IMG/VR virus record: IMGVR_UViG_3300047476_000982
Coordinates: 120,729 to 184,728 of that record
Direction: 5' to 3' (one strand)
DNA: 64,000 nt
Source: a virus
Shown here: in pieces, positions 3,993 through 49,154 of the stretch
Numbering within the stretch: the stretch's first letter is position 1
Layout of the letters: every line of letters begins with the position of its first letter
Program-made: the position numbers and the translations under genes
The notes under the pieces: generated by a model
The model's database searches: none
What the model was told of the DNA's origin: nothing
The model's input: only the letters and a program-made list of their open reading frames with translations

Positions 3993-4301
3993 AGAGGTGT
4001 ACTTCAGGATTAGTTGGTCTATGATCTGTTTATCTGATTGATCAAATGACTTTTTATTTTGAACCTTTTTTACGTAGTCAATATGCTTCTCAATTACTTC
4101 TAACTTAATTGCGTAATTTGAATGCTTGACTTTATTTTCGTTTGCGAATTTATATTCGTGAGTGAGTATCTCTTTTAGTGTCTGTACTTTTCTAATATAA
4201 TTATTTTCGACTTCTTTTTTATCGAAATGTTCTTTAGCTTCCATTGCCTTAACTAACTTATCTCCCATTTTGCCTAAAGAATATTTCCTGTAATCCATCA
4301 C
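3984..4301 (-). CDS. hypothetical basic protein
   Basis: ORF track. Confidence 0.6.
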   Translation of the reverse strand: MMDYRKYSLGKMGDKLVKAMEAKEHFDKKEVENNYIRKVQTLKEILTHEYKFANENKVKHSNYAIKLEVIEKHIDYVKKVQNKKSFDQSDKQIIDQLILKYTSHN

Positions 4302-4588
4302 TCATTATTTTTAACCATGTACTTGAATATTGTTTTCTGTAGTTCTCTTAACGCCTCAGTATTTTCTCTTATGAGTTCAGCCAATCTATCTCTTTCTTCT
4401 GCAATCATGGCCATCATCTCATCTTGAAGCTTATCTACTTTTTCTTCTAAAGCATCATTCTTTTTAACAAGTCTTTGATATTGCATCCATGCAAAATATC
4501 CAAGTAAAAAAGCAAGCATACCCAAAACTCCGTATTGTAAAAAATACTCTCTTATGTGTTCTGATTCTGCTACCTGAAGTAAGGTCAT
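4298..4588 (-). CDS. single-TM coiled-coil membrane protein (holin-like)
   Basis: YGVLGMLAFLLGYFAW TM followed by a coiled coil. Confidence 0.5.
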   Translation of the reverse strand: MTLLQVAESEHIREYFLQYGVLGMLAFLLGYFAWMQYQRLVKKNDALEEKVDKLQDEMMAMIAEERDRLAELIRENTEALRELQKTIFKYMVKNNE

Positions 4589-4636
4589 ACTTTATAGTTA
4601 TTTTATATAACAATAAATATTAATAATAAAATTAAA

Positions 4637-5017
4637 CTACTTAGTACCAAACAGTTCTTTTAAACACTTTTTTGTGTCCCTTTTAGCAATTTTTGTTGCC
4701 TCAATTTCCATGGGATTTTTATGATCTGGTAGATACATTGCAAGTATCTGATAATGTTTCATGTTTTGTTTGTAGTGTATATACTCATGAATGATACTAT
4801 TTGCTAACTCATTTAAATTATCATTAGCAACCTTATCTACAAATATAACGGCATCAATCTCATCATAATAGGCTATACATCCTTCTGTATAGTAATCTGG
4901 TTTCTTAAACTCTATTTCTGGGATTGGTCTATTGAACTTAGATTTGCCATAAGTTTTTATACACCAATCAAGGATTTGATTTACGTGTTTTCTTGTAGGC
5001 TTTATTGTTAAATCCAT
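4637..5017 (-). CDS. HEXXH zinc metallopeptidase-like protein
   Basis: SIIHEYIHYKQ motif and a downstream E (NPMEIEA). Confidence 0.65.
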   Translation of the reverse strand: MDLTIKPTRKHVNQILDWCIKTYGKSKFNRPIPEIEFKKPDYYTEGCIAYYDEIDAVIFVDKVANDNLNELANSIIHEYIHYKQNMKHYQILAMYLPDHKNPMEIEATKIAKRDTKKCLKELFGTK

Positions 5018-5019
5018 AA

Positions 5020-5613
5020 CTATAAGTTTTCTTGTATAAATACTTTTTCTATTCTTTTAGGTGTTATTGAATAATCTGCTTTAAAATATCTTGGCATCTT
5101 TTCTATGATCTTTTGGTTACTGTATGGACTATTGTTTGGAGTAGCCCACTTTCTTGTAGCTAACAATCTATTGTAGAAGTAGATATACGCATTAGCTTTC
5201 TTTATATAACTATCAATATCTACATCTAAACCAAACTTTTTAATAATTCTTACAGACCTTTTTTCGTTATCTAATTCTAATTCTCTAGATACTGCCAAAT
5301 GCTTCTTGATATTAGGAACATCTTCACCTTCTAACCAAGCATCTACAAGAGGCATACTTACCATACACTTCTTCCATATATCTATTTGCTCTACCCATTG
5401 TGTAAGATGAGAAAATTCATGTGCAAGGATCTCTATCCAATCCTTCCTATTCATTGAACAAACAAGAGCTGGAGCATCTTCATCAAAGTATCCTGAGCAC
5501 TTTATATTTCCTGATAGTCTGACGTATCTAGTTTTCCTCAAATCACATTTGACTCCGTACTTTTTACATTCAGACTTTACGTATTTGACGAACTCTCTTT
5601 CCTTCTTGTTCAT
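5020..5613 (-). CDS. HEXXH zinc metallopeptidase-like protein
   Basis: ILAHEFSHLTQ motif, ELDNE downstream. Confidence 0.6.
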   Translation of the reverse strand: MNKKEREFVKYVKSECKKYGVKCDLRKTRYVRLSGNIKCSGYFDEDAPALVCSMNRKDWIEILAHEFSHLTQWVEQIDIWKKCMVSMPLVDAWLEGEDVPNIKKHLAVSRELELDNEKRSVRIIKKFGLDVDIDSYIKKANAYIYFYNRLLATRKWATPNNSPYSNQKIIEKMPRYFKADYSITPKRIEKVFIQENL

Positions 5614-5631
5614 ATAGATAGGTTTTAGGTC

Positions 5632-5955
5632 CTATGATAAATATGAACCCTTTAAGTCCTCTATATGTTTACAGCTTCTTTTATTTCCAGAAAATTTAAA
5701 AGAGTGACAATTACACTCCCAAGTTTTTCCTTTGAGTGTCACTAGGTACTTCTTACCTTTTGTGCCTTGCACGTCCCACTCGATATCTCTTTCAAATGCA
5801 GGATTCTTTCCACCTCTATGAGGCTTCTTGAACCATAGGATCTGATCTCTTGTAGTACCTTGAGGCAAATCTCTTCTCCCGTCATCATCTATTAGATAAG
5901 GACCTTTCTCGTCTATCCAAAAGAACGGAACTATAAAAGAGTGCACAATTATCAT
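5632..5955 (-). CDS. SWIM zinc-finger protein
   Basis: WECNCHSFKFSGNKRSCKHI = CxC-x(n)-CxH. Confidence 0.8.
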   Translation of the reverse strand: MIIVHSFIVPFFWIDEKGPYLIDDDGRRDLPQGTTRDQILWFKKPHRGGKNPAFERDIEWDVQGTKGKKYLVTLKGKTWECNCHSFKFSGNKRSCKHIEDLKGSYLS

Positions 5956-29119: not shown

Positions 29120-31365
29120 AAATTCAAATTAAATGTTAATGAAATTGATTGTTCGTTATTTGTTTTAATTAAATTGCCCCTTGATTTTTGATAATAAACA
29201 GAAGGTTGGGCAAGTATATCACCTACTGCTAATTTTATTTCTCCTTTACCTACCTTACGTAAGAATACTAAATCTATAACATCTCTAGAGTTTTCAAATA
29301 TGTCATCGTATCCTTGAAAACCTACTGCTGATATTCTATCTCCAACTCTATTATAAGAAAGGTTGATTGTGTTTTTTCCTTTATGTAAATTCAATCCACC
29401 ATTTACAACATAATTAGATTGCCCTTGTAATTGTCTTTTTCTACCGTTAACAACTACTTCAGATTTAACTATAGAAGTATTAGTATAAGCATCTAACCAA
29501 TTAGTTATTTTTTTACGAAACTCTATTTCAAATCCAGCAACTAATGCTTGATCTGGATTCAAGTATGTTAGTAATAGATTTGATGGTACTGATCCATCTG
29601 CTACTATTTGTTCAATTGGCTTTTTAAAGTCTTTAATAAAGAAAGCTCCTGATATGTTTTCACTTTGTTTAGGATAGTATTCTAACTTAATATCAACGTT
29701 ATAAACATCTGTCTTTTGTAGATTGGGATTACCTAATAGTTGGGCATTACGTACAAAATCATAGTATGCAAAGTTAGCAACTTCTCTAAACTCAGGTCTT
29801 GCTAATGTTTTACTAGCAGATATTCTATACTTAAATCTATCCCATTCATAAGAAAAGTTTACTGAAGGTAAAAGGTCTAGATACTTTCTATTTACATTAA
29901 CTCTCGTACCACTAAAGTCTGCGGTTTGTACATTAAACAAATTGTATTCTGTTCTTAAACCTGCATTTACTTTCCAACCATTTAATTCGCCTTCATATAA
30001 AGCATATGCACTTGCTAAATCAAAATCTGCAGAATACTTGTCAGTATTATTAGTAATTTCGTCTAACATATCTTCAGAAGTATATCTAAAGATTCTAGCT
30101 TTAAAAGTTCTGTATTTTTTAATATAGCTTGAACCTATTTTAAAACCACCTAATTGTTTATTCACGCCGGCATTTAAACCATTTTCATCCATGTCACTCC
30201 AAAAACGATAAGTATCTCTCCATGCAATTGCATAAGGTTCATTAACTCCTAATGACTTAGTTATTGGATTAATTCTATAGTCTGGTTGTTTTCTAATCAT
30301 TAAATTATATCCTACATTAAAATCAAAAGTTTTAATCTTGCCATCAAATTGAGAATTGATTAATGTTTTAACTATATTATTAGACGCATTACTTCTTACA
30401 TCTTGAACATTATCGTAATTCTCGCCTATACGAGTTAAATAAGATTGTTCTACTTGATGATTAAATAAAGTTTTTAAACTATATCTATTTTTTCCTGTAT
30501 AAGTTACATTAAAAAGCCCATTTAACAATTGAACTCTACTAAATGAAGTATCTCTGTATTTGTATGCTAATTCTGTTGATGATTGATAATCTTGTCTATC
30601 AATATAATTTAGTGCGTAAGTATTTCTTGCAGTTGAACTAAATAATACGTTCCACTTATTTCTTTTTAATCCAAAAGAAAGCGATCCATTTAAGTTAGGA
30701 ATAGATTTAAATTCTTGAACAATTGGAGACTTTATGAGACTTGTGTAATTCTTTTTCTCTGTGTTTGTGCTTACGCGATAAATGTAAGTGGATGGAAATT
30801 GAGTGGGGAAGGTCGTATAATCCACCAATTTGAAATTTTGGGAAGTTGAAACGGCCCCGTAATTCACTCCGAGGCCTAATGAGAAAAAATCATTAGATAC
30901 ATCTTTTGTAGTTACTTGAACAATTCCTCCTGCAAAATCACCAGGCAAATTTGCTGTAGCTGACTTTGCTACTATGATATTATCTATGAGTCCTGATGGA
31001 ATAATATCAAATGAAAATGCTCTACGATCAGGTTCTGTTGATGGTAAAATAGTTTTATTCAGCATAGCAGAATTATATCTATCTGCTAAACCTCTAACTA
31101 ATACAAACTTATCGTTCTGTATAGTAACACCATTAACTCTTTTAAGTGCATCACCTACACTACGATCAGGAGTTTTCTTTATAAACTCAACAGAAAGCCC
31201 ATCAGATATAACAGAACTATTTCTGATGCTATTAATCACTGCAATGTTAGATTCTTTCTTTTGAACAGAACGAATCGTAATATTATCTAGTTTTTGATTG
31301 AATAAAGTGTCTTGGGAAAAGGATAAAACTGGAAATAGTAAAAATAGTAACGCTTTTAATTTCAT
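29116..31365 (-). CDS. TonB-dependent outer-membrane receptor (compact, start MKLKALL)
   Basis: Signal peptide; plug DALKRVNGVT...VRGLADRYN...FDIIP...PGDFAGG; barrel motifs ARPEFRE, GNPNL, QGQSNY. Confidence 0.9.
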   Translation of the reverse strand: MKLKALLFLLFPVLSFSQDTLFNQKLDNITIRSVQKKESNIAVINSIRNSSVISDGLSVEFIKKTPDRSVGDALKRVNGVTIQNDKFVLVRGLADRYNSAMLNKTILPSTEPDRRAFSFDIIPSGLIDNIIVAKSATANLPGDFAGGIVQVTTKDVSNDFFSLGLGVNYGAVSTSQNFKLVDYTTFPTQFPSTYIYRVSTNTEKKNYTSLIKSPIVQEFKSIPNLNGSLSFGLKRNKWNVLFSSTARNTYALNYIDRQDYQSSTELAYKYRDTSFSRVQLLNGLFNVTYTGKNRYSLKTLFNHQVEQSYLTRIGENYDNVQDVRSNASNNIVKTLINSQFDGKIKTFDFNVGYNLMIRKQPDYRINPITKSLGVNEPYAIAWRDTYRFWSDMDENGLNAGVNKQLGGFKIGSSYIKKYRTFKARIFRYTSEDMLDEITNNTDKYSADFDLASAYALYEGELNGWKVNAGLRTEYNLFNVQTADFSGTRVNVNRKYLDLLPSVNFSYEWDRFKYRISASKTLARPEFREVANFAYYDFVRNAQLLGNPNLQKTDVYNVDIKLEYYPKQSENISGAFFIKDFKKPIEQIVADGSVPSNLLLTYLNPDQALVAGFEIEFRKKITNWLDAYTNTSIVKSEVVVNGRKRQLQGQSNYVVNGGLNLHKGKNTINLSYNRVGDRISAVGFQGYDDIFENSRDVIDLVFLRKVGKGEIKLAVGDILAQPSVYYQKSRGNLIKTNNEQSISLTFNLNL

Positions 31366-40509: not shown

Positions 40510-41151
40510 ATGCCAGATTTACCAATATCAGGATTACCAGCAGCAAGCTTACCTTTAGATGGAACAGAATTATTTGCGACAGTTCAAGGAGGAATAACTA
40601 AATATTCAACACTAAACTCTGTAAACTACATTCCTGGTAATAGTTATGGATTATTTGCTCAGACATCAAATAGTGCTATTATAACTGCTACAACAGCAGA
40701 ATTATCTTTAATTAATGGTGGAGTAGGTACACTAACTGTTCCTGCAAATGGATTTAGAATTGGTGATAGTTTTAGAGCAGATTTTGGTGGCCAGCTTTCT
40801 TCTAAAAATAATGATACTATAAGAATTAAAGTTAAAGCAGGTAGCGTAATTTTAGCAGATAGTGGAACACAGGTTATGTCAACAGCAGTTGCTGATATTT
40901 GGCAGTTTTCTATAAATTTTACAATTAGAGCATTAGGAGTAGCAGGAGTAGCAGATACTGTTTCTCTTGGTGTATTTCATACTACAAAACAATCTAATGG
41001 AGCACCTCAAGGATTTGCCTTTAATACTGTTAATAATACAACATTTGATACTACGATATCAAATACTTTAGATGTTACTGCTCAATTTAGTTCAAATAGT
41101 CCTTTAAATTCAATATATACGGACATATTTGTATTGAATAAAATCTATTAA
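40510..41151 (+). CDS. tail-fibre/virion decoration-like beta protein
   Basis: N-terminal ISGLPAASLPLDGTE...VQGGIT motif typical of fibre anchors; G/T/N-rich. Confidence 0.55.
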   Translation: MPDLPISGLPAASLPLDGTELFATVQGGITKYSTLNSVNYIPGNSYGLFAQTSNSAIITATTAELSLINGGVGTLTVPANGFRIGDSFRADFGGQLSSKNNDTIRIKVKAGSVILADSGTQVMSTAVADIWQFSINFTIRALGVAGVADTVSLGVFHTTKQSNGAPQGFAFNTVNNTTFDTTISNTLDVTAQFSSNSPLNSIYTDIFVLNKIY

Positions 41152-42191
41152 TTGCTTAATGCAGCTTTGATTTTTGGATGAGATTGATAATCTATTAATT
41201 CAAAACAATCTGGTCTGTAACTTAATATTTTTTCGCTAAATGTTTTTTCTCCAAGATATTCTTTAACTGCTTCATGCATATACCAATTCCTTTCAGTTAT
41301 TTTAACTTTAGGTAATTCATATGGAGTTCTAGTTATTTGCTCTTTAGCTTGTTCAATATGGTTATTATACAAATGAACGTCACCTAAATTACCAATCAAA
41401 TCTTCAGGCACCATGTTTACTTCTTTAGCAATAATCTCAAGTAGTAGTGCATATGAAGCAATATTGAATGGTAGACCAAGGAATGTATCTACTGAACGTT
41501 GATTCCACATCAGAGATATGGCTCTTGAAGGAGCATAGTCTAATGGATCAATATTTTTTATGTATCCTCTTTTTTCGTATTCTTCAACTCTTTCTTTTAT
41601 ACTTAATTCTCTAGTATAAACTTGAAAACCATAATGACAAGGTGGAAGTACCATTTGATTTAACTCACTTACATTCCATGCACTAACCATTAATCTTCTA
41701 CTATTAGGATTTGTTTTGAGTTCACTAATTAGATTTTGTATTTGATCTATACCACCTTTATTAATTTCATTAGGTACATTTAACCAATTTCTCCATTGAG
41801 CACCATAAATCGGACCTAAATCACCGTATTTTTCACAGAAGTCTTTATTATTTTTTATTTCATCAATAAACCATTCTTTTGATGGAACTTCTTCATATCC
41901 TGCAAATTTATTTGTGTAATTTTTATATGCGTCTCCATCCCAAATATGACAATCGTAATCTAATAAGAATTTGATATTTGTATCACCTCTTAGGAACCAC
42001 AACAATTCTGTTACCATAGTTTTCCACGCCATCTTTTTTGTAGTTAGCAATGGAAAGCCTTCTTTCATGTTGTGTCTAATTTGCCAACCGAAGATTGATT
42101 TAGTGCCTGTTCCAGTACGATCTTTTTTATCTACACCAAAATGTAGAATGTGTTCTAATATTTCTTTATATTGACGATCAATATTATTCAT
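41148..42191 (-). CDS. thyA: thymidylate synthase (canonical, dUMP-type)
   Basis: DRTGTGT, FPLLTTKK, LPPCH, QRSVDTFLGLPFNIASY (Asn), DVHLY. Confidence 0.97.
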   Translation of the reverse strand: MNNIDRQYKEILEHILHFGVDKKDRTGTGTKSIFGWQIRHNMKEGFPLLTTKKMAWKTMVTELLWFLRGDTNIKFLLDYDCHIWDGDAYKNYTNKFAGYEEVPSKEWFIDEIKNNKDFCEKYGDLGPIYGAQWRNWLNVPNEINKGGIDQIQNLISELKTNPNSRRLMVSAWNVSELNQMVLPPCHYGFQVYTRELSIKERVEEYEKRGYIKNIDPLDYAPSRAISLMWNQRSVDTFLGLPFNIASYALLLEIIAKEVNMVPEDLIGNLGDVHLYNNHIEQAKEQITRTPYELPKVKITERNWYMHEAVKEYLGEKTFSEKILSYRPDCFELIDYQSHPKIKAALSN

Positions 42192-43311: not shown

Positions 43312-43770
43312 TTATAACTTTAGTAGTGGAATATCTTTTTTGGTATGAAGTATGTGTCTTGGTTGGCCTGATTTTGTAAGACCTATAGTATAAGCTTTCT
43401 TCTTTATAGTAGGGAATATCTCTTCTACTCTTTTCTTTTCTGCATTATTTCCCCAAATACAAAGTATTTTTTTACAAGCATTTTTCATATTCTCAATCCA
43501 AATATCATTATCTGATCCTACTGGATCATTTACTCCTTTTAGGTCTTTTGGGTTGGGTGTTATATAACCGTATAGATTGGTCACAACTATACTATCAAAA
43601 CCTTCTCTTAAGGCAATATCCATCAATATAGAAACAGTACTGTTCTTACCATTCTTTATATGAGAAGGATTCAAACCTAAAACACCCATTGGATTGTACG
43701 CAGTTCCTGAATCAAATATACTAAGATACTGATACTTTTGGCATGGGCTTACGATTCTCAGAATGTTCAC
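43312..43770 (-). CDS. DUF1643 family protein
   Basis: VLGLNPS, VTNLY..ITPNPKDL, DPVGSDND, IWGNN, GLTKSGQPRH. Confidence 0.8.
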   Translation of the reverse strand: MNILRIVSPCQKYQYLSIFDSGTAYNPMGVLGLNPSHIKNGKNSTVSILMDIALREGFDSIVVTNLYGYITPNPKDLKGVNDPVGSDNDIWIENMKNACKKILCIWGNNAEKKRVEEIFPTIKKKAYTIGLTKSGQPRHILHTKKDIPLLKL

Positions 43771-44235: not shown

Positions 44236-44883
44236 TTAGTTGAACATATCGTAATGTCTAGGATAAACATGTAGATTTGTAATGAACCAATGCATTTGGC
44301 CTATTGGATATTTTATTTTACGAGAAACGTGTTCCATTAGTTTAGCAAACGTGTATTGGTCGTTACAGAAACCAAACACAAGATCAATGGATCTAGCAAA
44401 GACTGTGAGATGTAGTTTATCGTCTTTGATATAGAAATTAAGTACGTCATTACAAGGAGTATCATATTTATATCTATCTATTTCGTGTAGAATGTAATGT
44501 ACAACAATTGCTCGACGTGTTTCTTTATTTCTTTTTAGTTCGTCGATAACTTTGTTAAGTTGATTGTTATAATTCCAGAAGTATCCATAATTAGAGTTTA
44601 CTTCAGTAGTACCTGGTACCATCATTTGATTCCATATCTTAGCACGTTCACCTATCTCTTTAGCATCTCTATCTCCTTTGAGATACCAATGCCATTCATA
44701 TTCTGCATAATCTTGATTAAACTTACGTCTAGGTGTTGTGATTACTTTATCTACTGGATTATCGATGGTGAAAGAGACGTTGAACTTTGCTTTAGTATTA
44801 GCGAAGTCTTCACCAGTGTCTACAATGTAGTGGAATAAGTTTTCAAATGCACTAGTAGGGGTCGAATAGATTTTATTGTCCAT
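44236..44883 (-). CDS. thymidylate-synthase paralog, predicted dCMP hydroxymethylase/hydroxylase
   Basis: YAEYEWHWY, VNSNYG, DTPC (catalytic Cys), RSIDLVFGFCND with Asp at the ThyA-Asn177 position, NLHVY. Confidence 0.8.
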   Translation of the reverse strand: MDNKIYSTPTSAFENLFHYIVDTGEDFANTKAKFNVSFTIDNPVDKVITTPRRKFNQDYAEYEWHWYLKGDRDAKEIGERAKIWNQMMVPGTTEVNSNYGYFWNYNNQLNKVIDELKRNKETRRAIVVHYILHEIDRYKYDTPCNDVLNFYIKDDKLHLTVFARSIDLVFGFCNDQYTFAKLMEHVSRKIKYPIGQMHWFITNLHVYPRHYDMFN

Positions 44884-45337
44884 GTTGTTCTACTTCTATA
44901 AATTGTGATAAAAAGTCTATGCCTTGTGTATTTCGATATACATTCAAATATACAACTCTTTTTATTCCTGATTGCAAAATAAGTTTAGAGCAGTCTAAAC
45001 AAGGGCTAAGTGTTAAGTACAAAGTAGAACCATCTACAGAGTTGCCTGTTTTTGCTGCTTTAAGAATAGCATTTACTTCTGCATGTATAACATGGGGCAG
45101 AGTGACATCATCTTTCTCACAAGTGTTGTCCATACCTGCAGGAGTGCCATTATATCCAAAAGATATTATATTGCCATCTTTAACTAAAACTGCGCCGACT
45201 TTTGATCGAACGCAGTGTGACAGAGTAGAAGTTTCCTTAGCTATGTTAATAAATACTCTGTCTAGTATTTTTTGCTTAAAGTCCTGTAGAACCGAATCCA
45301 CCTGAACCTCTTTGTGTGTTTCTGTTTGGTAATTCAT
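44873..45337 (-). CDS. dCMP deaminase (start uncertain, see findings)
   Basis: GYNGTP, HAEVNA, LSPCLDC. Confidence 0.92.
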   Translation of the reverse strand: MNYQTETHKEVQVDSVLQDFKQKILDRVFINIAKETSTLSHCVRSKVGAVLVKDGNIISFGYNGTPAGMDNTCEKDDVTLPHVIHAEVNAILKAAKTGNSVDGSTLYLTLSPCLDCSKLILQSGIKRVVYLNVYRNTQGIDFLSQFIEVEQHGQ

Positions 45338-45704
45338 CAACTTCTAATATATCTAGGTAACCAACTGGAATTAAAACGAACTGAACTAACTTTTGTCCTG
45401 TAACAATAGTTTGATCTTTATCAGATGTATTGATCATGTGAAGATGTACTTCTCCTTCATAATCTTCATCTACTACGCAAGCACCTACCGATAGACCTTG
45501 CTTAACAGCTACACCTGATTTATTAAATGCTACTAGAGCATAGCCTCTTGGAACTTGTACTCTAACACCTGATGGGATCAATACTGATTCACCTGGCTTT
45601 AGTATCGTAGTTTCAAAATCCTCAGGTACATAAAAATCAATTCCTGCTGATGCTTCTGTGCCCCTATTTGGGGTCTTTACGTTTCGTAACTTTTCTATCT
45701 TCAT
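45276..45704 (-). CDS. dut: trimeric dUTPase
   Basis: SAGIDF, KSG, VVDEDYEGE, RGSGGFGSTG. Confidence 0.93.
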   Translation of the reverse strand: MKIEKLRNVKTPNRGTEASAGIDFYVPEDFETTILKPGESVLIPSGVRVQVPRGYALVAFNKSGVAVKQGLSVGACVVDEDYEGEVHLHMINTSDKDQTIVTGQKLVQFVLIPVGYLDILEVDELPNRNTQRGSGGFGSTGL

Positions 45705-45969
45705 TTTGAACATTGTTTTGATAATCATTTAGTGAAGCAATATACGCAACACAATCTAATAAATTGTCTTCTTTGTGGTTATAAGCTTGTCTTGATAACT
45801 TTAATGCAATCATACAATTGTACATATCGACTGCAGTTAGTTCTTTACGACTTAATAACGATGCAATTTTGGCTGCCTCTTGCATACCTTCTTGCATTGG
45901 CCCATATTGACGGGCTTTTTCTTCAGATCTCTTGTAGATGATCTCGTTTGCTTGTTCTAGTATATTCAT
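45664..45969 (-). CDS. DUF6378-like (dNTP diphosphohydrolase-related) protein
   Basis: RSEEKARQYG, MIALKLSR...HKEDNLLDCVAY. Confidence 0.7.
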   Translation of the reverse strand: MNILEQANEIIYKRSEEKARQYGPMQEGMQEAAKIASLLSRKELTAVDMYNCMIALKLSRQAYNHKEDNLLDCVAYIASLNDYQNNVQNEDRKVTKRKDPK

Positions 45970-46005
45970 GGAATAAATATAAAACAGAATTGATAAATGA
46001 TAAAA

Positions 46006-46893
46006 CTATTCTCCTAAGTACTTGATGATATCAGATTTATCACCCCACTCTCTTTGAGAGTCGATGTCACTTGGCTTGATTGTAGGTTTAGGCATATTTC
46101 TTGCAACATTCCAAAACCAATTTCCAGAGTGGCCATAACGTTTCATGTAGTCCCAACCTTTTGCATCATAAGTTTTGATACAATCAAATGGAGTATCAAT
46201 ATCACAATCTTTAAGAAACTCTTTATGATACGCGTAGAATTTAGCTCTACCTAATTCACCTGGTTGTACATTTCTTGCAACTGCTACTGCATTAAATTTA
46301 GTATTAGGAAGTGCAATTTGAAGTGTTCTAGATAAAACGCCTGTTGAGAAAACAGTCCATAGTTCGTCTATATTTTTATCTTTAAATGCTTCATGAAATA
46401 TCTTTACACCGCCTGCTACAACTTGTTCGTGTTTAAGACCAAATGGTAAATACTTTGCACCAATTTTTTGTGCGAACTCTTTTGCCCAACCATTTATAGT
46501 CGGCATAGCAGGAGTTTTTAAGAATATTGGAGTTGCGCCATCTTCAATAACACGTAGTTGATGTTCAGAAGCTTCTTTAGATGCTGGCATAAGTAGTACA
46601 AGTTTTTTATTATACTTCTTTGCAAGATATGTAAGTGAATATGGAGCATAGCCTGTTCTTGGTGCAACATAAACTAAAGTGTCTTCTTTTACTTGGCTGA
46701 TCATGAAGTCGCCCATCTTTGCTTTAGTTCCATATTGAAACTCCCCATCGTCTATTACATTATAACCATCAATTTGTTTTATAGAAAAGTCAAAGTCTGG
46801 TTTATAATCTTTGGTCATTTCTAGATAGTAGTTTAAATCTCTACCATCTGCCATGTCTAAATTAGATTGATCAGTCGCTTTGTTTATAAACAT
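46006..46893 (-). CDS. fold-type II PLP-dependent enzyme (TrpB/cysteine synthase/ACC deaminase-like)
   Basis: YGTKAK Schiff-base Lys, GYAPYSL, FSTGVLSRTL phosphate loop, YDAKGW, WFWNV. Confidence 0.75.
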   Translation of the reverse strand: MFINKATDQSNLDMADGRDLNYYLEMTKDYKPDFDFSIKQIDGYNVIDDGEFQYGTKAKMGDFMISQVKEDTLVYVAPRTGYAPYSLTYLAKKYNKKLVLLMPASKEASEHQLRVIEDGATPIFLKTPAMPTINGWAKEFAQKIGAKYLPFGLKHEQVVAGGVKIFHEAFKDKNIDELWTVFSTGVLSRTLQIALPNTKFNAVAVARNVQPGELGRAKFYAYHKEFLKDCDIDTPFDCIKTYDAKGWDYMKRYGHSGNWFWNVARNMPKPTIKPSDIDSQREWGDKSDIIKYLGE

Positions 46894-46895
46894 AA

Positions 46896-47939
46896 CTATT
46901 TTAGTTTGGTTGCGAAGTCATAATACTTATCATGACCCCATGTTTGTTTAAGAATCGTATTATTGCTCATTCTACGACCATTGTTTTTAATTACATGGTC
47001 AGCAGATTGATATTCTTGAAAATAACGAACTACGTCACAAGCTCTACTATCTTCACAATCAATTGGATTTAAGTTATATCTATTAGATAAGAATTGTAGT
47101 ACTTCATTAATGTATTCAAACTCTTTTACTCTAGGACTAACTTTAGGAAAAATAGCGTTAATACAACGAACAGCATTTGTTCCTGCGTACACCCAACCTT
47201 TAGGATTAACATAGTTAGGGAAATATTCACCCAAGTCTGCTGCAAATGCAGTTAATACAAAGTTTTGCTTTTTAAATCCAAGGTTTTTAAGATACTCATT
47301 ACCTAAATCTGTTACTTGATAGATATCACATCTTTTACTCTTAACTGCATCATAGATATGTCTAACTAAGCCTTCTGAGTATTCTAAAATAAACTTTCTT
47401 AAGTGACCTCTAGTTTCGTTCTCAAATGTAAATTGAGGAAGTAAGTATCCTTTATTATCTGTAAAAGGTGTGATGCGGTTATAAAGGTCCTGTTTCCATT
47501 CTGGCCACGTGTAATGTTCTTTCAATATAGAATCCACAATCCAGAAATTACCGAAACCGTGCGTACCCAGGATGTCCTTGATATGATCCTTCTTATATCT
47601 TGGTACATAATTAATACCAGAACCACAAAGTCTAAATAAATAGAACAGCATAAACCAATCAAACTCATCATTAATATCATGTTGAGTAAAGTGGTGACCC
47701 ATTCCTCTCATATCTTTTTCTTTATACCATACTGCTTCAGTGAATGCACAGAACGCTGCAAATCTACGGTGCGCGGTATCATAAATAGGCACATGATAGA
47801 TTAGATCATCATTTACATCTTTATATAAATCTCCTTCATAAGGAAGACCTAGACTACCATGTTGTTGCATCAATAAACTACGTTTATCGTATTCATCTAA
47901 GGCTTCAAGGAGTTTTTCATTCACAATGAATTTTTGCAT
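46896..47939 (-). CDS. HhH-fold amino acid:DNA transferase (AADT/aGPT-PPlase)-like protein
   Basis: IYDTAHRR (cf. NVxRxxD), GFKKQNFVLTAFAADL HhH, AGTNAVRCI (cf. GPGAxRGL), IDCEDSRACDVVRY (cf. DxExxLCExxKY). Confidence 0.6.
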   Translation of the reverse strand: MQKFIVNEKLLEALDEYDKRSLLMQQHGSLGLPYEGDLYKDVNDDLIYHVPIYDTAHRRFAAFCAFTEAVWYKEKDMRGMGHHFTQHDINDEFDWFMLFYLFRLCGSGINYVPRYKKDHIKDILGTHGFGNFWIVDSILKEHYTWPEWKQDLYNRITPFTDNKGYLLPQFTFENETRGHLRKFILEYSEGLVRHIYDAVKSKRCDIYQVTDLGNEYLKNLGFKKQNFVLTAFAADLGEYFPNYVNPKGWVYAGTNAVRCINAIFPKVSPRVKEFEYINEVLQFLSNRYNLNPIDCEDSRACDVVRYFQEYQSADHVIKNNGRRMSNNTILKQTWGHDKYYDFATKLK

Positions 47940-47940
47940 A

Positions 47941-48228
47941 TTATAGTTTTTCTATTTCTTGTTTTACTTCTTCCCAATAAGATTTAGCCATTCTCCAATC
48001 ACCACTATCAGACATTATCCCCATAGATAGTATTTCATTTACTGTTATTGAAGCATAAAATTTTGCGATAGGCTTTGTGTTGGAATATTCTTCCATTTCT
48101 ACAAATGTTATTTCAGGTCTTTCGTATATTTTGTTTAAAGTTTCTTTAATATCATTAGGACATTTAATGAAATAAACTCCGCGTAAATATTTTTGAAACA
48201 ATTCTTCTGCTTTTTCTTTTGGTGTCAT
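47941..48228 (-). CDS. small hypothetical protein (MTPKEKAEEL...YWEEVKQEIEKL family)
   Basis: ORF track; similar to 905..1078. Confidence 0.65.
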   Translation of the reverse strand: MTPKEKAEELFQKYLRGVYFIKCPNDIKETLNKIYERPEITFVEMEEYSNTKPIAKFYASITVNEILSMGIMSDSGDWRMAKSYWEEVKQEIEKL

Positions 48229-49154
48229 TTTACAAATTCATTTGCGAACATATAATATTTAGGCTTCAAATGTACCGATTGTTTAGGTTCCATGTATTCA
48301 AACATACCTGTACCATCTTCATCAATCCATTCATTTGGCCATTGAAGTGTTTTGAGTCCTGAGTTATTCATGATTCTATTTGCAGTATCTACTAATCTCA
48401 TTCTTTCTTGTCTTGTACCAAAATAAGGTTGTTTGAGATATAAACCTGTACCAGGTAATTTACGACTTTCATGCTCAACTGGCAACAAATTAACTAGAGT
48501 AGCATTATTTAGTTTTCTAGCAAACTCTACATAGCGTCTAATAAGATCTCCTACAGCTTCAGCAGGATTATCTTGTCTCATTAAGTGAAAACGAATATCG
48601 ATATTACCAAAGTAAAGAACCACTTCATCATACTTTTCATTCCATTCTCTAACGAGTGAATCAGCTTCTTTCAAAAAGCCAAACAAAGTTTTACCGTCTG
48701 TTCTATCAAGACCAAAACCAGGTCTCCATACACTAAGAGAATGCGAATCTCCACGAACTAACTTTCTTGTATCTTTACCATAATGTTTAGCATAGTTGAT
48801 ACAATTAATAGCTGGGAATACATGGTCTAAACCAAATCTTTTATTAAATATATTAAGATCAATAGGAACATTAACTGCGATAGCTAAACCTTTATAATTA
48901 GCCATAGCTTCAAGCTTAGCTCTATGTTCAGGTTGTGGTCCTCCAATAAAGTTGAATGTGTTCTCTTGATAGTTAACTCCTTCTAGAATATAGAGTCTTT
49001 CATAATCATTCCATGTTGAAGGATCAGGATTAAATTCTAATTCTCCTTTGTGTTGTGATTTTAATATACTCGACATAACATGATAATAGCCTCCACCGTG
49101 ATGGCTTTGGCTACTACCGATATTATTGAGCATACCTATTACGGCTGCTTTCAT
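48225..49154 (-). CDS. protein with C-terminal SGNH hydrolase/acyltransferase-like domain
   Basis: GDSH (block I), FGNID (block III), SVHL (block V). Confidence 0.65.
   Translation of the reverse strand: MKAAVIGMLNNIGSSQSHHGGGYYHVMSSILKSQHKGELEFNPDPSTWNDYERLYILEGVNYQENTFNFIGGPQPEHRAKLEAMANYKGLAIAVNVPIDLNIFNKRFGLDHVFPAINCINYAKHYGKDTRKLVRGDSHSLSVWRPGFGLDRTDGKTLFGFLKEADSLVREWNEKYDEVVLYFGNIDIRFHLMRQDNPAEAVGDLIRRYVEFARKLNNATLVNLLPVEHESRKLPGTGLYLKQPYFGTRQERMRLVDTANRIMNNSGLKTLQWPNEWIDEDGTGMFEYMEPKQSVHLKPKYYMFANEFVK

Follow-up and report, generated by a model that had tools for sequence, protein, structure and literature searches.

A conserved phage gene cassette predicted to place an amino-acid-derived group on cytosine

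To our knowledge, all characterized amino-acid-type hypermodifications of DNA are carried by thymine and require a nucleobase kinase. Here, we analyse a run of genes in a 64,000-nucleotide stretch of the IMG/VR record IMGVR_UViG_3300047476_000982 (positions 120,729 to 184,728; hereafter, the window), which comes from an uncultured aquatic phage, and compare it with the systems described so far. With moderate confidence, we read this run as a phage DNA hypermodification cassette acting on cytosine, which would build an amino-acid-derived, decarboxylated substituent on 5-hydroxymethylcytosine (5-hmC) and in which an enzyme of the SGNH fold probably replaces the kinase. The identity of the parts and their belonging together are reasonably established, and the DNA of phages carrying the cassette may contain a base that still lacks a chemical description.

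In Salmonella phage ViI, 5-(2-aminoethoxy)methyluridine is produced by a dUMP hydroxymethylase, a 5-hydroxymethyldeoxyuridine (5-hmdU) DNA kinase (5-HMUDK; gp67/gp243), a serine:DNA transferase (gp247) and a pyridoxal phosphate (PLP) decarboxylase (gp226) (PMC8989533). The Pseudomonas phages M6 and PaMx11 combine a 5-HMUDK with a glycine:DNA transferase (gp51 and gp46, respectively; 8z2m), followed by the PLP decarboxylase gp52 and a radical S-adenosylmethionine (radical-SAM) enzyme or by an FAD lyase and an acetyltransferase (PMC8989533, PMC11472151). These thymidine pathways need the 5-HMUDK to turn the hydroxyl of the base into a leaving group (PMC8989533, PMC11472151). As in ViI, a thymidylate synthase (TS) homologue in the window would make a hydroxymethyl-pyrimidine nucleotide, and a helical protein of the amino acid:DNA transferase (AADT) type would act after replication, followed by a fold-type II PLP enzyme, with no radical-SAM isomerase; unlike in ViI, the TS homologue is of the dCMP type, there is no P-loop kinase, an SGNH protein is conserved instead and the transferase-like protein lies outside the Pfam AADT family (PF18724). 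The PLP enzyme belongs to the same PHROG as M6 gp52, and the predicted structure of the 347-aa transferase-like protein, which has a conserved Cys near its C terminus, superposes on PaMx11 gp46 (Z 8.5). In contrast to M6 and PaMx11, however, the 347-aa protein has no detectable profile-level homology to the clade of gp51 and gp46, the cassette has no kinase, radical-SAM enzyme, FAD enzyme or GNAT, and its predicted target is C, not T.

Systems that modify cytosine, or that share single parts with the cassette, offer further points of comparison. Like the hydroxymethylcytosine (hmC) system of T4 (gp42, gp56, gp1 and the α- and β-glucosyltransferases), the cassette has a gp42-like active-site signature accompanied by a dCMP deaminase, a dUTP-hydrolysing enzyme and ThyA; unlike T4, it has no glucosyltransferase, and its decoration is predicted to be amino-acid-derived, not a sugar. 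The 5-hmdU DNA kinases SP10 gp186 and PhiW-14 gp37 (PF18748 plus PF18723) join an activating enzyme to a helical domain resembling aGPT-PPlase, an arrangement that recurs in fusions of the SGNH protein, where the catalytic module is an SGNH Ser-His fold and not a P-loop kinase. A 5hmC carbamoyltransferase system described with MetaGPA, which makes 5-carbamoyloxymethylcytosine, also pairs an Asp177 TS homologue with an enzyme that adds an acyl-type group to the 5hmC hydroxyl, and its TS homologue co-occurs with dCMP deaminase domains, but it uses a carbamoyltransferase where the present cassette has an SGNH protein, and it has no AADT-like or PLP partner (PMC8670742). In the arabinosylation of 5-hydroxycytosine in RB69 and DLP3, too, a TS homologue with Asp177 and an acidic residue 143 supplies a modified dCMP; those enzymes, however, carry D169N and make 5-hydroxy-dCMP, whereas Asp169 is invariant here and the cassette shows no glycosyltransferases (PMC13326640).

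Set against these systems, the cassette would carry a known logic (a hydroxymethyl-pyrimidine, an AADT-type step and a PLP step) over to a different base, while the activating enzyme would be another one and the transferase would come from a new clade. The initial annotation, made from the sequence alone, knew of no described pathway with this combination, and our search, in the literature available to us, likewise found no paper on this cassette, on amino-acid-type hypermodification of hmC, on SGNH proteins in DNA modification or on the function of DUF6378, the domain of a further protein encoded in the run.

Enzymes of the candidate cassette

The putative source of the modified nucleotide is a TS-fold paralogue, whose closest solved relative in a search of PDB sequences is T4 gp42 dCMP hydroxymethylase (1b49, 9e-19). 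Its motif FGFCND pairs with FGFRND of the T4 enzyme, which places an Asp at the position of T4 Asp179 and E. coli Asn177. We aligned the paralogue and 16 orthologues (17 in total, 30–69% identity) together with the window's ThyA. The catalytic Cys144 (E. coli C146) and D167 (E. coli D169; within RS(I/N)D) are invariant across the 17 paralogues, and D141 (E. coli L143; within DTPC) and D175 (E. coli N177; within GFCND) are conserved in at least 90% of them. According to a 2026 paper, an acidic residue at the L143 position, which bears on water access, goes with a hydroxymethyl product, and some ‘gene 42’ homologues make 5-hydroxy-dCMP and carry D169N (PMC13326640). The MetaGPA study independently identified Asp177 TS homologues as markers of contigs that carry modified cytosine, and found them together with dCMP deaminase domains (PMC8670742). 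Judged by these residues, the paralogue bears all three signatures of a 5-hydroxymethyl-dCMP (5-hm-dCMP) synthase, and not the signature of the ThyA or of the 5-hydroxycytosine type; its score also falls far under every ThyA equivalog cut-off in NCBIfam. The phage very probably makes hydroxymethylcytosine of the T4 type. The window's ThyA keeps Asn177 and has the motifs PPCH and RSVDTFLGLPFN (LGLPFN), and such a canonical enzyme argues for normal thymine synthesis, with the dUTPase and the dCMP deaminase as further parts of the pyrimidine supply chain. The dCMP type that the initial annotation had proposed for the paralogue, beside a canonical ThyA, is supported by the Asp at 143 and 177, with Asp169 kept. 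Relative to the paralogues and the Pfam model, ThyA has two internal insertions of roughly 27–35 residues and a C-terminal extension of roughly 60 residues.

For the 295-aa PLP enzyme (P0002), sequence comparison points to the family of M6 gp52 and ViI gp226. M6 gp52, the archetype of phrog_7093 (2e-159), falls in the same PHROG as P0002, and hhalign of the 295-aa family against gp52 gives a probability of 87% (E 4e-6), in a match that begins beyond Lys57 of the family and so does not pair this residue with K36 of M6 gp52. The C-terminal motif PF..YDxKxW...FWN is common to both. Lys57 itself is invariant in the 295-aa family within GGTKxRAGEF, which we take to resemble the lysine motif of ACC-deaminase-type PLP enzymes. 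The Pfam family PALP is matched by orthologues at 9e-8, just under the cut-off, and by gp52 at 6e-10, P0002 itself having no Pfam match; look-alikes in the Atlas resemble the tryptophan synthase β subunit, and phmmer and profile searches against PDB sequences gave nothing usable. M6 gp52 is an experimentally proven PLP-dependent decarboxylase of C-α-glycinylthymine in DNA, and ViI gp226, too, was modelled on a fold-II template (PMC8989533). The fold-type II PLP enzyme of the initial annotation is a homologue of a proven DNA decarboxylase, and we propose that it decarboxylates an amino acid:base conjugate; because gp52 and P0002 share a PHROG, the idea of a decarboxylated substituent rests on real homology. 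Elsewhere, a domain 26–29% identical to the PLP enzyme lies inside a roughly 810-aa ‘DNA modification methylase’ of Erythrobacter phage vB_EliS_R6L (L083, 483–1232), and the same PLP-like domain is found in a methylase-annotated protein of Erythrobacter phage ZS04 and Microcystis phage Mae-JY30. This protein could be a methylase–PLP fusion, which would hint that the PLP family also serves a further DNA-base pathway.

The 347-aa protein has no match in Pfam, PHROG, NCBIfam, PADLOC or PDB-sequence searches, and its assignment comes from predicted structure. An AlphaFold (AF2) model based on a 35-sequence alignment of close relatives (A1) is all-helical, with a predicted local distance difference test (pLDDT) score of 93. 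In a BFVD search with this model, the two top matches are uncharacterized relatives and the third is labelled ‘Amino acid:DNA transferase domain’ (E 1e-12, template-modelling (TM) score 0.75, 19% identity); the helical domain of the 5-hmdU DNA kinase (E 0.04 or worse) and aGPT-Pplase1 follow. Among 48,161 solved chains compared by VIA, in which Z below 13 discriminates weakly for helical proteins, QNG1/DUF2419 came out on top (Z 9.1), the 5-PmdU glycinyltransferase PaMx11 gp46 (8z2m_A) reached Z 8.5 (root-mean-square deviation 4.5, 208 aligned residues) and the glycosylases AGOG, OGG, AlkA and EndoIII reached Z 5–7.5. Foldseek against the PDB returned no match at E ≤ 0.001, its weak rows including gp46, OGG1 and QNG1. 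The two-helical-bundle fold, which is like that of helix-hairpin-helix (HhH) proteins, is shared with QNG1 and HhH glycosylases and hence is not specific to AADT.

At the level of sequence, PF18724 does not match the 347-aa protein even at E 10, when M6 gp51 scores 1e-46, and only one of 52 distant relatives (alignment A5) reaches 1e-3; when A1 and A5 are compared by hhalign with the M6 gp51 clade (an alignment of 24 sequences), the probability is about 1%, and comparisons of the family with M6 gp51 alone and with ORF233c of Aeromonas phage 44RR reveal no relationship. Cys301-Asp302, within EDSRxCDxxRY, is invariant in A1 and nearly invariant in A5, roughly 87 sequences together. In PaMx11 gp46, Cys247 attacks C6 and expels phosphate (PMC11472151); Cys301, at a similar relative position near the C terminus, may correspond to it. 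The models place the 347-aa protein in the AADT/aGPT-PPlase branch of the HhH-like fold, probably as a new clade outside Pfam AADT, because PF18724 does not match it and the hhalign probability is so low, and we propose that it acts as a group transferase on activated 5-hmC. The AADT call of the initial annotation, made from degenerate motif matches, was a good guess: it is upheld at the level of the fold by AF2, BFVD (where AADT-labelled models were matched) and VIA, and it fails as a claim of membership in the Pfam AADT family, whose profile leaves the protein unmatched.

The 309-aa protein is predicted to consist of two domains (AF2 on 28 sequences, pLDDT 91): a Rossmann-like α/β domain at about residues 1–120, and an SGNH/GDSL domain at residues 122–306. 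VIA relates the latter to about 50 SGNH esterases, thioesterases and O-acetyltransferases (Z 10–12.1), and Foldseek matches SGNH structures with a probability of 1.0, besides one weak global row for T4 β-glucosyltransferase (1c3j; E 9e-4, TM 0.25). G135-D136-S137-H138, G154/G159, N184 (within GNID) and H295 are invariant among the 28 sequences, and the fold match and the invariant Ser, Gly, Asn and His sustain the SGNH call of the initial annotation. At the usual place of the block V Asp, three residues before His295, stands Gln292; the enzyme may work with a Ser-His dyad, or E289 may substitute for that Asp. The protein matches phrog_13881 and phrog_17781 and has no match to Pfam GDSL; phmmer and profile searches against PDB sequences gave nothing usable, and NCBIfam and PADLOC likewise returned nothing for the three core proteins of uncertain family. 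For the 309-aa protein, we propose the role of an acyl-enzyme by which 5-hmC in DNA is activated or acylated. A predicted complex of the SGNH and 347-aa proteins scored 0.00, which carries no weight for or against binding.

Linkage across relatives and the missing DNA kinase

Linkage was examined across 80 IMG/VR loci, all with a gene for a relative of the 347-aa protein (50–97% identity), which we searched with the proteins of the window. The PLP enzyme is encoded in 79 of these loci, the DUF6378 protein in 75, the SGNH protein in 73, the TS paralogue in 64 and the dCMP deaminase in 50; the genes missing from some loci probably reflect, at least partly, short contigs cut at their ends. The deaminase gene abuts that of the TS paralogue in the window, and the pair occurs together in many of the 80 loci. 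In diverged loci (L052–L082), the order DUF6378, SGNH, AADT-like protein, PLP enzyme, TS paralogue persists with the partners at 31–48% identity, and GroEL, ThyA and usually the deaminase are gone from the vicinity of the cassette. A 100%-complete relative (G002) has its SGNH gene moved roughly 60 kb away and still retains it.

Two of the core proteins are also found as one chain. SGNH–helical fusions include the metagenome proteins P0125, P0143, P0147 and P0176, and ORF233c of Aeromonas phage 44RR. In P0125, the N-terminal half is SGNH-like (36% identity, 7e-57) and the C-terminal half resembles the 347-aa protein (47% identity). Its neighbourhood (L097) reads, in order, DUF6378, the fusion, PALP, a 176-aa open reading frame (ORF), a TS paralogue and a dUTPase_2-like gene; the paralogue has KDTPCT, RSND and GFCID and is again dCMP-type. 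Two further SGNH–transferase fusions adjoin PALP genes. Because of the co-occurrence in the 80 loci, the fusions and the retention of SGNH in the complete relative, the genes for the SGNH, transferase-like, PLP and DUF6378 proteins and the TS paralogue form a functional unit, and the grouping that the initial annotation had drawn from one genome extends to genes that travel together across relatives.

The DUF6378 protein, kept in most loci and also beside the fused form, is on this evidence a conserved member of the cassette, for which our searches turned up neither a solved relative nor a named look-alike, and no paper that sheds light on it. The suggestion in the initial annotation that it is a nucleotide hydrolase, or dCTPase, depleting dCTP is unsupported, structure and literature searches having given nothing for or against it.

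The last gene of the P0125 neighbourhood (L097:13505–13960), directly after the TS paralogue, encodes a 151-aa protein with a faint match to dUTPase_2 (all-α NTP pyrophosphatase); it may be the counterpart of T4 gp56, and it has no detectable homologue in the window. A 165-aa ORF downstream of the window's TS paralogue was considered as its counterpart and rejected, since the two have no similarity; searched against PDB sequences, this ORF gave nothing usable.

Relatives are widespread in metagenomes. The 347-aa protein found 373 metagenomic clusters at E ≤ 0.001, and an exhaustive search yielded 92 representative clusters; the SGNH protein found 825 clusters. The annotated sources of these relatives include JGI, ENA, Logan and Tara. 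Neither a megablast search with the region nor a tblastn search with the 347-aa protein found anything among 50,697 phage records.

No P-loop DNA kinase is encoded in the window, where the only ORFs with a Walker-A motif are those of a DnaB-like helicase and a RecA-like protein. As a whole-genome stand-in for the window, we used a collinear IMG/VR contig (G001; 162 kb, 95% complete) of 72–85% nucleotide identity. Searches with PF18748 (the 5-hmdU DNA kinase domain), PF18723 (its helical domain, HMUDK_hel) and the M6 gp54 protein found nothing in this contig, in G002 (183 kb, 100% complete) or in a third relative (G003); in the same run, PF18748 found M6 gp54 at 1e-19 (8e-18 for the gp54 protein against PF18748). 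The absence of a kinase, which the initial annotation had noted for the window, holds in near-complete relatives as well. Since the kinase is absent, the SGNH protein is conserved and the SGNH–helical fusions mirror kinase–helical fusions, the data suggest that the kinase is replaced by the SGNH enzyme, whose part would go beyond a late acylation.

The sole uncharacterized P-loop protein of the stand-in contig is a Zeta-toxin-like protein (261 aa; PF06414, 5e-10) at 29275–30060 (L085:10275–11060), roughly 100 kb from the cassette and beside a DnaG-like primase. We set it aside as the pathway kinase, as it has no match in G002, G003, 44RR or the Tenacibaculum phage PTm1; it could be a nucleotide (dNMP) kinase.

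Predicted pathway and alternative explanations

In the pathway that we propose, the TS paralogue would convert dCMP to 5-hm-dCMP in the manner of T4 gp42, as its residue signatures suggest, for incorporation into phage DNA, and ThyA, the dCMP deaminase and the dUTPase would keep the thymidylate supply normal. After replication, Ser137 of the SGNH protein would carry out acyl-enzyme chemistry on the hydroxymethyl group, most likely esterifying it, so that a carboxylate would serve as leaving group in place of the phosphate installed by the 5-hmdU DNA kinase. The 347-aa protein, to judge from its fold, its conserved Cys-Asp pair and its gene context, would flip the base, attack C6 through Cys301, expel the leaving group and place an amino acid on the exocyclic methylene. 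Next, the PLP enzyme would link to the free α-amine of the appended amino acid through a Schiff base and release CO2, leaving an aminoalkyl-type substituent. An amino acid linked through its side chain, with a free α-amine, would be the simplest case because there is no radical-SAM isomerase; were it an O-linked serine, in analogy to the ViI pathway, the cytosine would carry a 2-aminoethoxymethyl group. The likely benefit is virion DNA that resists host nucleases. The initial annotation had envisaged an amino-acid-derived, decarboxylated and possibly acylated substituent on 5-hmC, with DUF6378 depleting dCTP: the 5-hmC signature and the decarboxylase homology remain, the acylation would be recast as a substitute for the kinase, and the role given to DUF6378 is left without support.

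If this reading is correct, amino-acid-type DNA hypermodification extends to cytosine, a hydroxymethyl base in DNA has a second activation route that uses an acyl-enzyme instead of ATP, and a new natural base joins the list. Such a modification would influence the response of phage DNA to restriction enzymes, CRISPR nucleases, sequencing chemistries and enzymatic methylation mapping, and SGNH, AADT-like and PLP enzymes that act on DNA would be useful for site-selective labelling of 5hmC.

Several observations weigh against the proposed pathway. The chemistry of the product is inferred throughout. The fold scores of the 347-aa protein tie with QNG1 and come close to those of HhH glycosylases, and its sequence shows neither a PF18724 match nor appreciable hhalign similarity to the gp51 clade. 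In the SGNH protein, a Gln takes the usual place of the block V Asp, and no acyl donor was identified for it. Neither a gp56-type dCTPase nor a gp1-type dNMP kinase was identified, and hence no dNMP kinase for 5-hm-dCMP. The Zeta-toxin-like gene of the stand-in contig leaves one P-loop protein to account for, and the Aeromonas phages that carry the SGNH protein have no detectable gp52-like PLP gene. Known fusions, furthermore, join enzymes that are not consecutive, such as kinase–PLP–AADT (PMC8989533), and because such fusions exist, the SGNH–transferase fusion does not fix the order of the steps.

A bolder version of the pathway is correspondingly more speculative. It holds that kinase-independent esterification of 5-hmC in duplex DNA by the SGNH enzyme, an AADT-like swap of the ester for an amino acid and gp52-type decarboxylation yield an undescribed cytosine with an aminoalkyl ether or amine, that this chemistry is widespread in aquatic phages and that a reduced, fused form explains the hmC modification of Aeromonas phages 44RR, 31 and 25. 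We put this forward tentatively, as a possibility that is rather more likely to fail in some part than to stand as a whole.

The main rival keeps the same cassette and assigns a different part to the 347-aa protein, that of a base-flipping DNA-binding partner, comparable to the helical domain of the 5-hmdU DNA kinases: the SGNH enzyme itself would join an acyl or aminoacyl group to 5-hmC as an ester, with the group taken for example from an aminoacyl ester donor, and the PLP enzyme would act on the ester-linked amino acid. This would account for the SGNH–helical fusions, which mirror the fusions of kinase with HMUDK_hel, for the weak HMUDK_hel match in the C-terminal half of 44RR ORF233c (E 0.0036) and for the lack of a sequence-level AADT match; O-carbamoylation of 5hmC provides a precedent for an O-acyl-type decoration (PMC8670742), and tRNA-dependent aminoacyl transfer to DNA has been reported for another enzyme (PMC13219725). 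It sits poorly, however, with the BFVD results, in which the closest labelled structures are AADT (E 1e-12) and those labelled HMUDK_hel are far weaker, and with the Cys-Asp pair conserved in roughly 87 sequences, which suggests AADT-type catalysis. On this balance, we regard it as unlikely.

That the target is instead 5-hydroxymethyluracil (5-hmU), with the dCMP deaminase turning 5-hm-dCMP into 5-hm-dUMP in a variant of the thymidine pathway, seems improbable to us. The deaminase gene does abut that of the TS paralogue and is found in 50 of the 80 loci, and every AADT or gp52-type enzyme characterized so far works on a derivative of 5-hmU (PMC8989533). Yet ThyA and dUTPase are kept as in T4, arguing for normal T, many diverged loci lack a deaminase in the vicinity of the core cassette, and hmU phages encode hydroxymethylases of the dUMP type (Asn177), whereas Asp177 goes with modified cytosine (PMC8670742).

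The structural comparison of the 347-aa protein, led by QNG1/DUF2419 and continued by AGOG, OGG, AlkA and EndoIII, would also fit an HhH glycosylase or a QNG1-like hydrolase that attacks host DNA or salvages bases, with the SGNH and PLP enzymes belonging to small-molecule metabolism. Such Z values, however, discriminate weakly for helical proteins, the best viral structural matches are AADT-labelled, and the gene is tightly and widely linked to a gp52-family PLP enzyme and a TS of the dCMP hydroxymethylase type and is fused to SGNH, all of which leave us with strong doubts about this explanation. Coincidental adjacency of nucleotide-metabolism genes and three unrelated accessory genes, which could appeal to the inferred nature of every step and to the lack of an explanation for DUF6378 and a 95-aa ORF, is very improbable, as the five core genes stay adjacent down to about 31–50% identity, two of them are fused in several lineages and one is homologous to a proven DNA-modifying enzyme.

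Cultured carriers and gene layout

The cytosine cassette that we propose has partial counterparts in cultured phages. A tblastn search with the SGNH protein found 43 phage records, which comprise T4-like Aeromonas phages (44RR2.8t, 31, 25, Aes508 and others), Stenotrophomonas phage IME13 and Tenacibaculum phage PTm1. The 44RR homologue is the N-terminal part of the 795-aa ORF233c, whose C-terminal region gives the weak match to HMUDK_hel, and 44RR and PTm1 each have a second TS homologue. A 2010 review lists genes 42 and 56, and no glucosyltransferase, for Aeromonas phages 44RR, 31 and 25, the modifier of their hmC being left open (PMC2993671); the cassette offers a testable answer to the question of what, if anything, is attached to the hmC of these phages. 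With no gp52-like gene detected, the product in the Aeromonas phages may differ from that proposed for the window and may be simpler.

Two features of these genomes stand apart. In 44RR2.8t, ORF233c (L001:5860–8247) comes directly after a homologue of sodium:solute symporters (4267–5790), an odd neighbour, which might import a substrate of the modification. In PTm1, the second TS match (L105, record 123231–123866) contains one in-frame TAA, which a damaged gene, an error in sequencing or recoding could explain.

In the window, the cassette genes are open reading frames that all run in the same direction (Table 1), in DNA of low GC content (about 31–35%) in which nearly all genes of the region lie on the minus strand. 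The single co-oriented run listed in the initial annotation is confirmed by the open frames and, for four named families, by Pfam and PHROG matches.

Table 1 Coordinates of the cassette genes and nearby features in the window
Feature	Length (aa)	Positions	Strand	Family match	Remark
SGNH protein	309	48225-49154	-		First in transcription order
Small ORF	95	47941-48228	-	phrog_21441 at 8e-10	Between SGNH and transferase-like genes
AADT-like all-helical protein	347	46896-47939	-		Predicted fold
Putative fold-type II PLP enzyme (P0002)	295	46006-46893	-	phrog_7093 at 1.3e-27	
DUF6378 protein	101	45664-45969	-	Pfam PF19905 at 2e-13	
Trimeric dUTPase		45276-45728	-	PF00692 at 7e-25; phrog_135 at 2e-43	
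dCMP deaminase		44873-45340	-	PF00383 at 2e-26; phrog_174 at 9e-55	
TS-fold paralogue	215	44236-44883	-	PF00303 at 4e-25	
DUF1643 protein		43312-43770		4e-23; phrog_3230	Between TS paralogue and ThyA
Canonical ThyA	347	41148-42191	-	PF00303 at 2e-95	2 kb from TS paralogue

TTG is the first codon of the dCMP deaminase frame, there is a 65-nt overlap with the end of the dUTPase gene, and only from residue 28 does the deaminase domain begin. Genes for GroEL, Hsp20, a family-A DNA polymerase, ribonucleotide reductase, the DnaB-like helicase and the RecA-like protein lie upstream. The DUF1643 protein is encoded in 8 of the 80 related loci and so is outside the core.

The 95-aa ORF has a homologue in 4 of the 80 loci, and the SGNH and transferase-like genes mostly abut directly; it is a local insertion, outside the conserved core. 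In some close relatives (L032, 6968–10001; L035; L007; L015), an additional 1–2 kb that includes a homologue of the 95-aa ORF separates the SGNH gene from the transferase-like gene, and in others, such as L017, roughly 700 bp more lie between the transferase-like gene and the PLP gene. Small insertions seem to collect at this junction.

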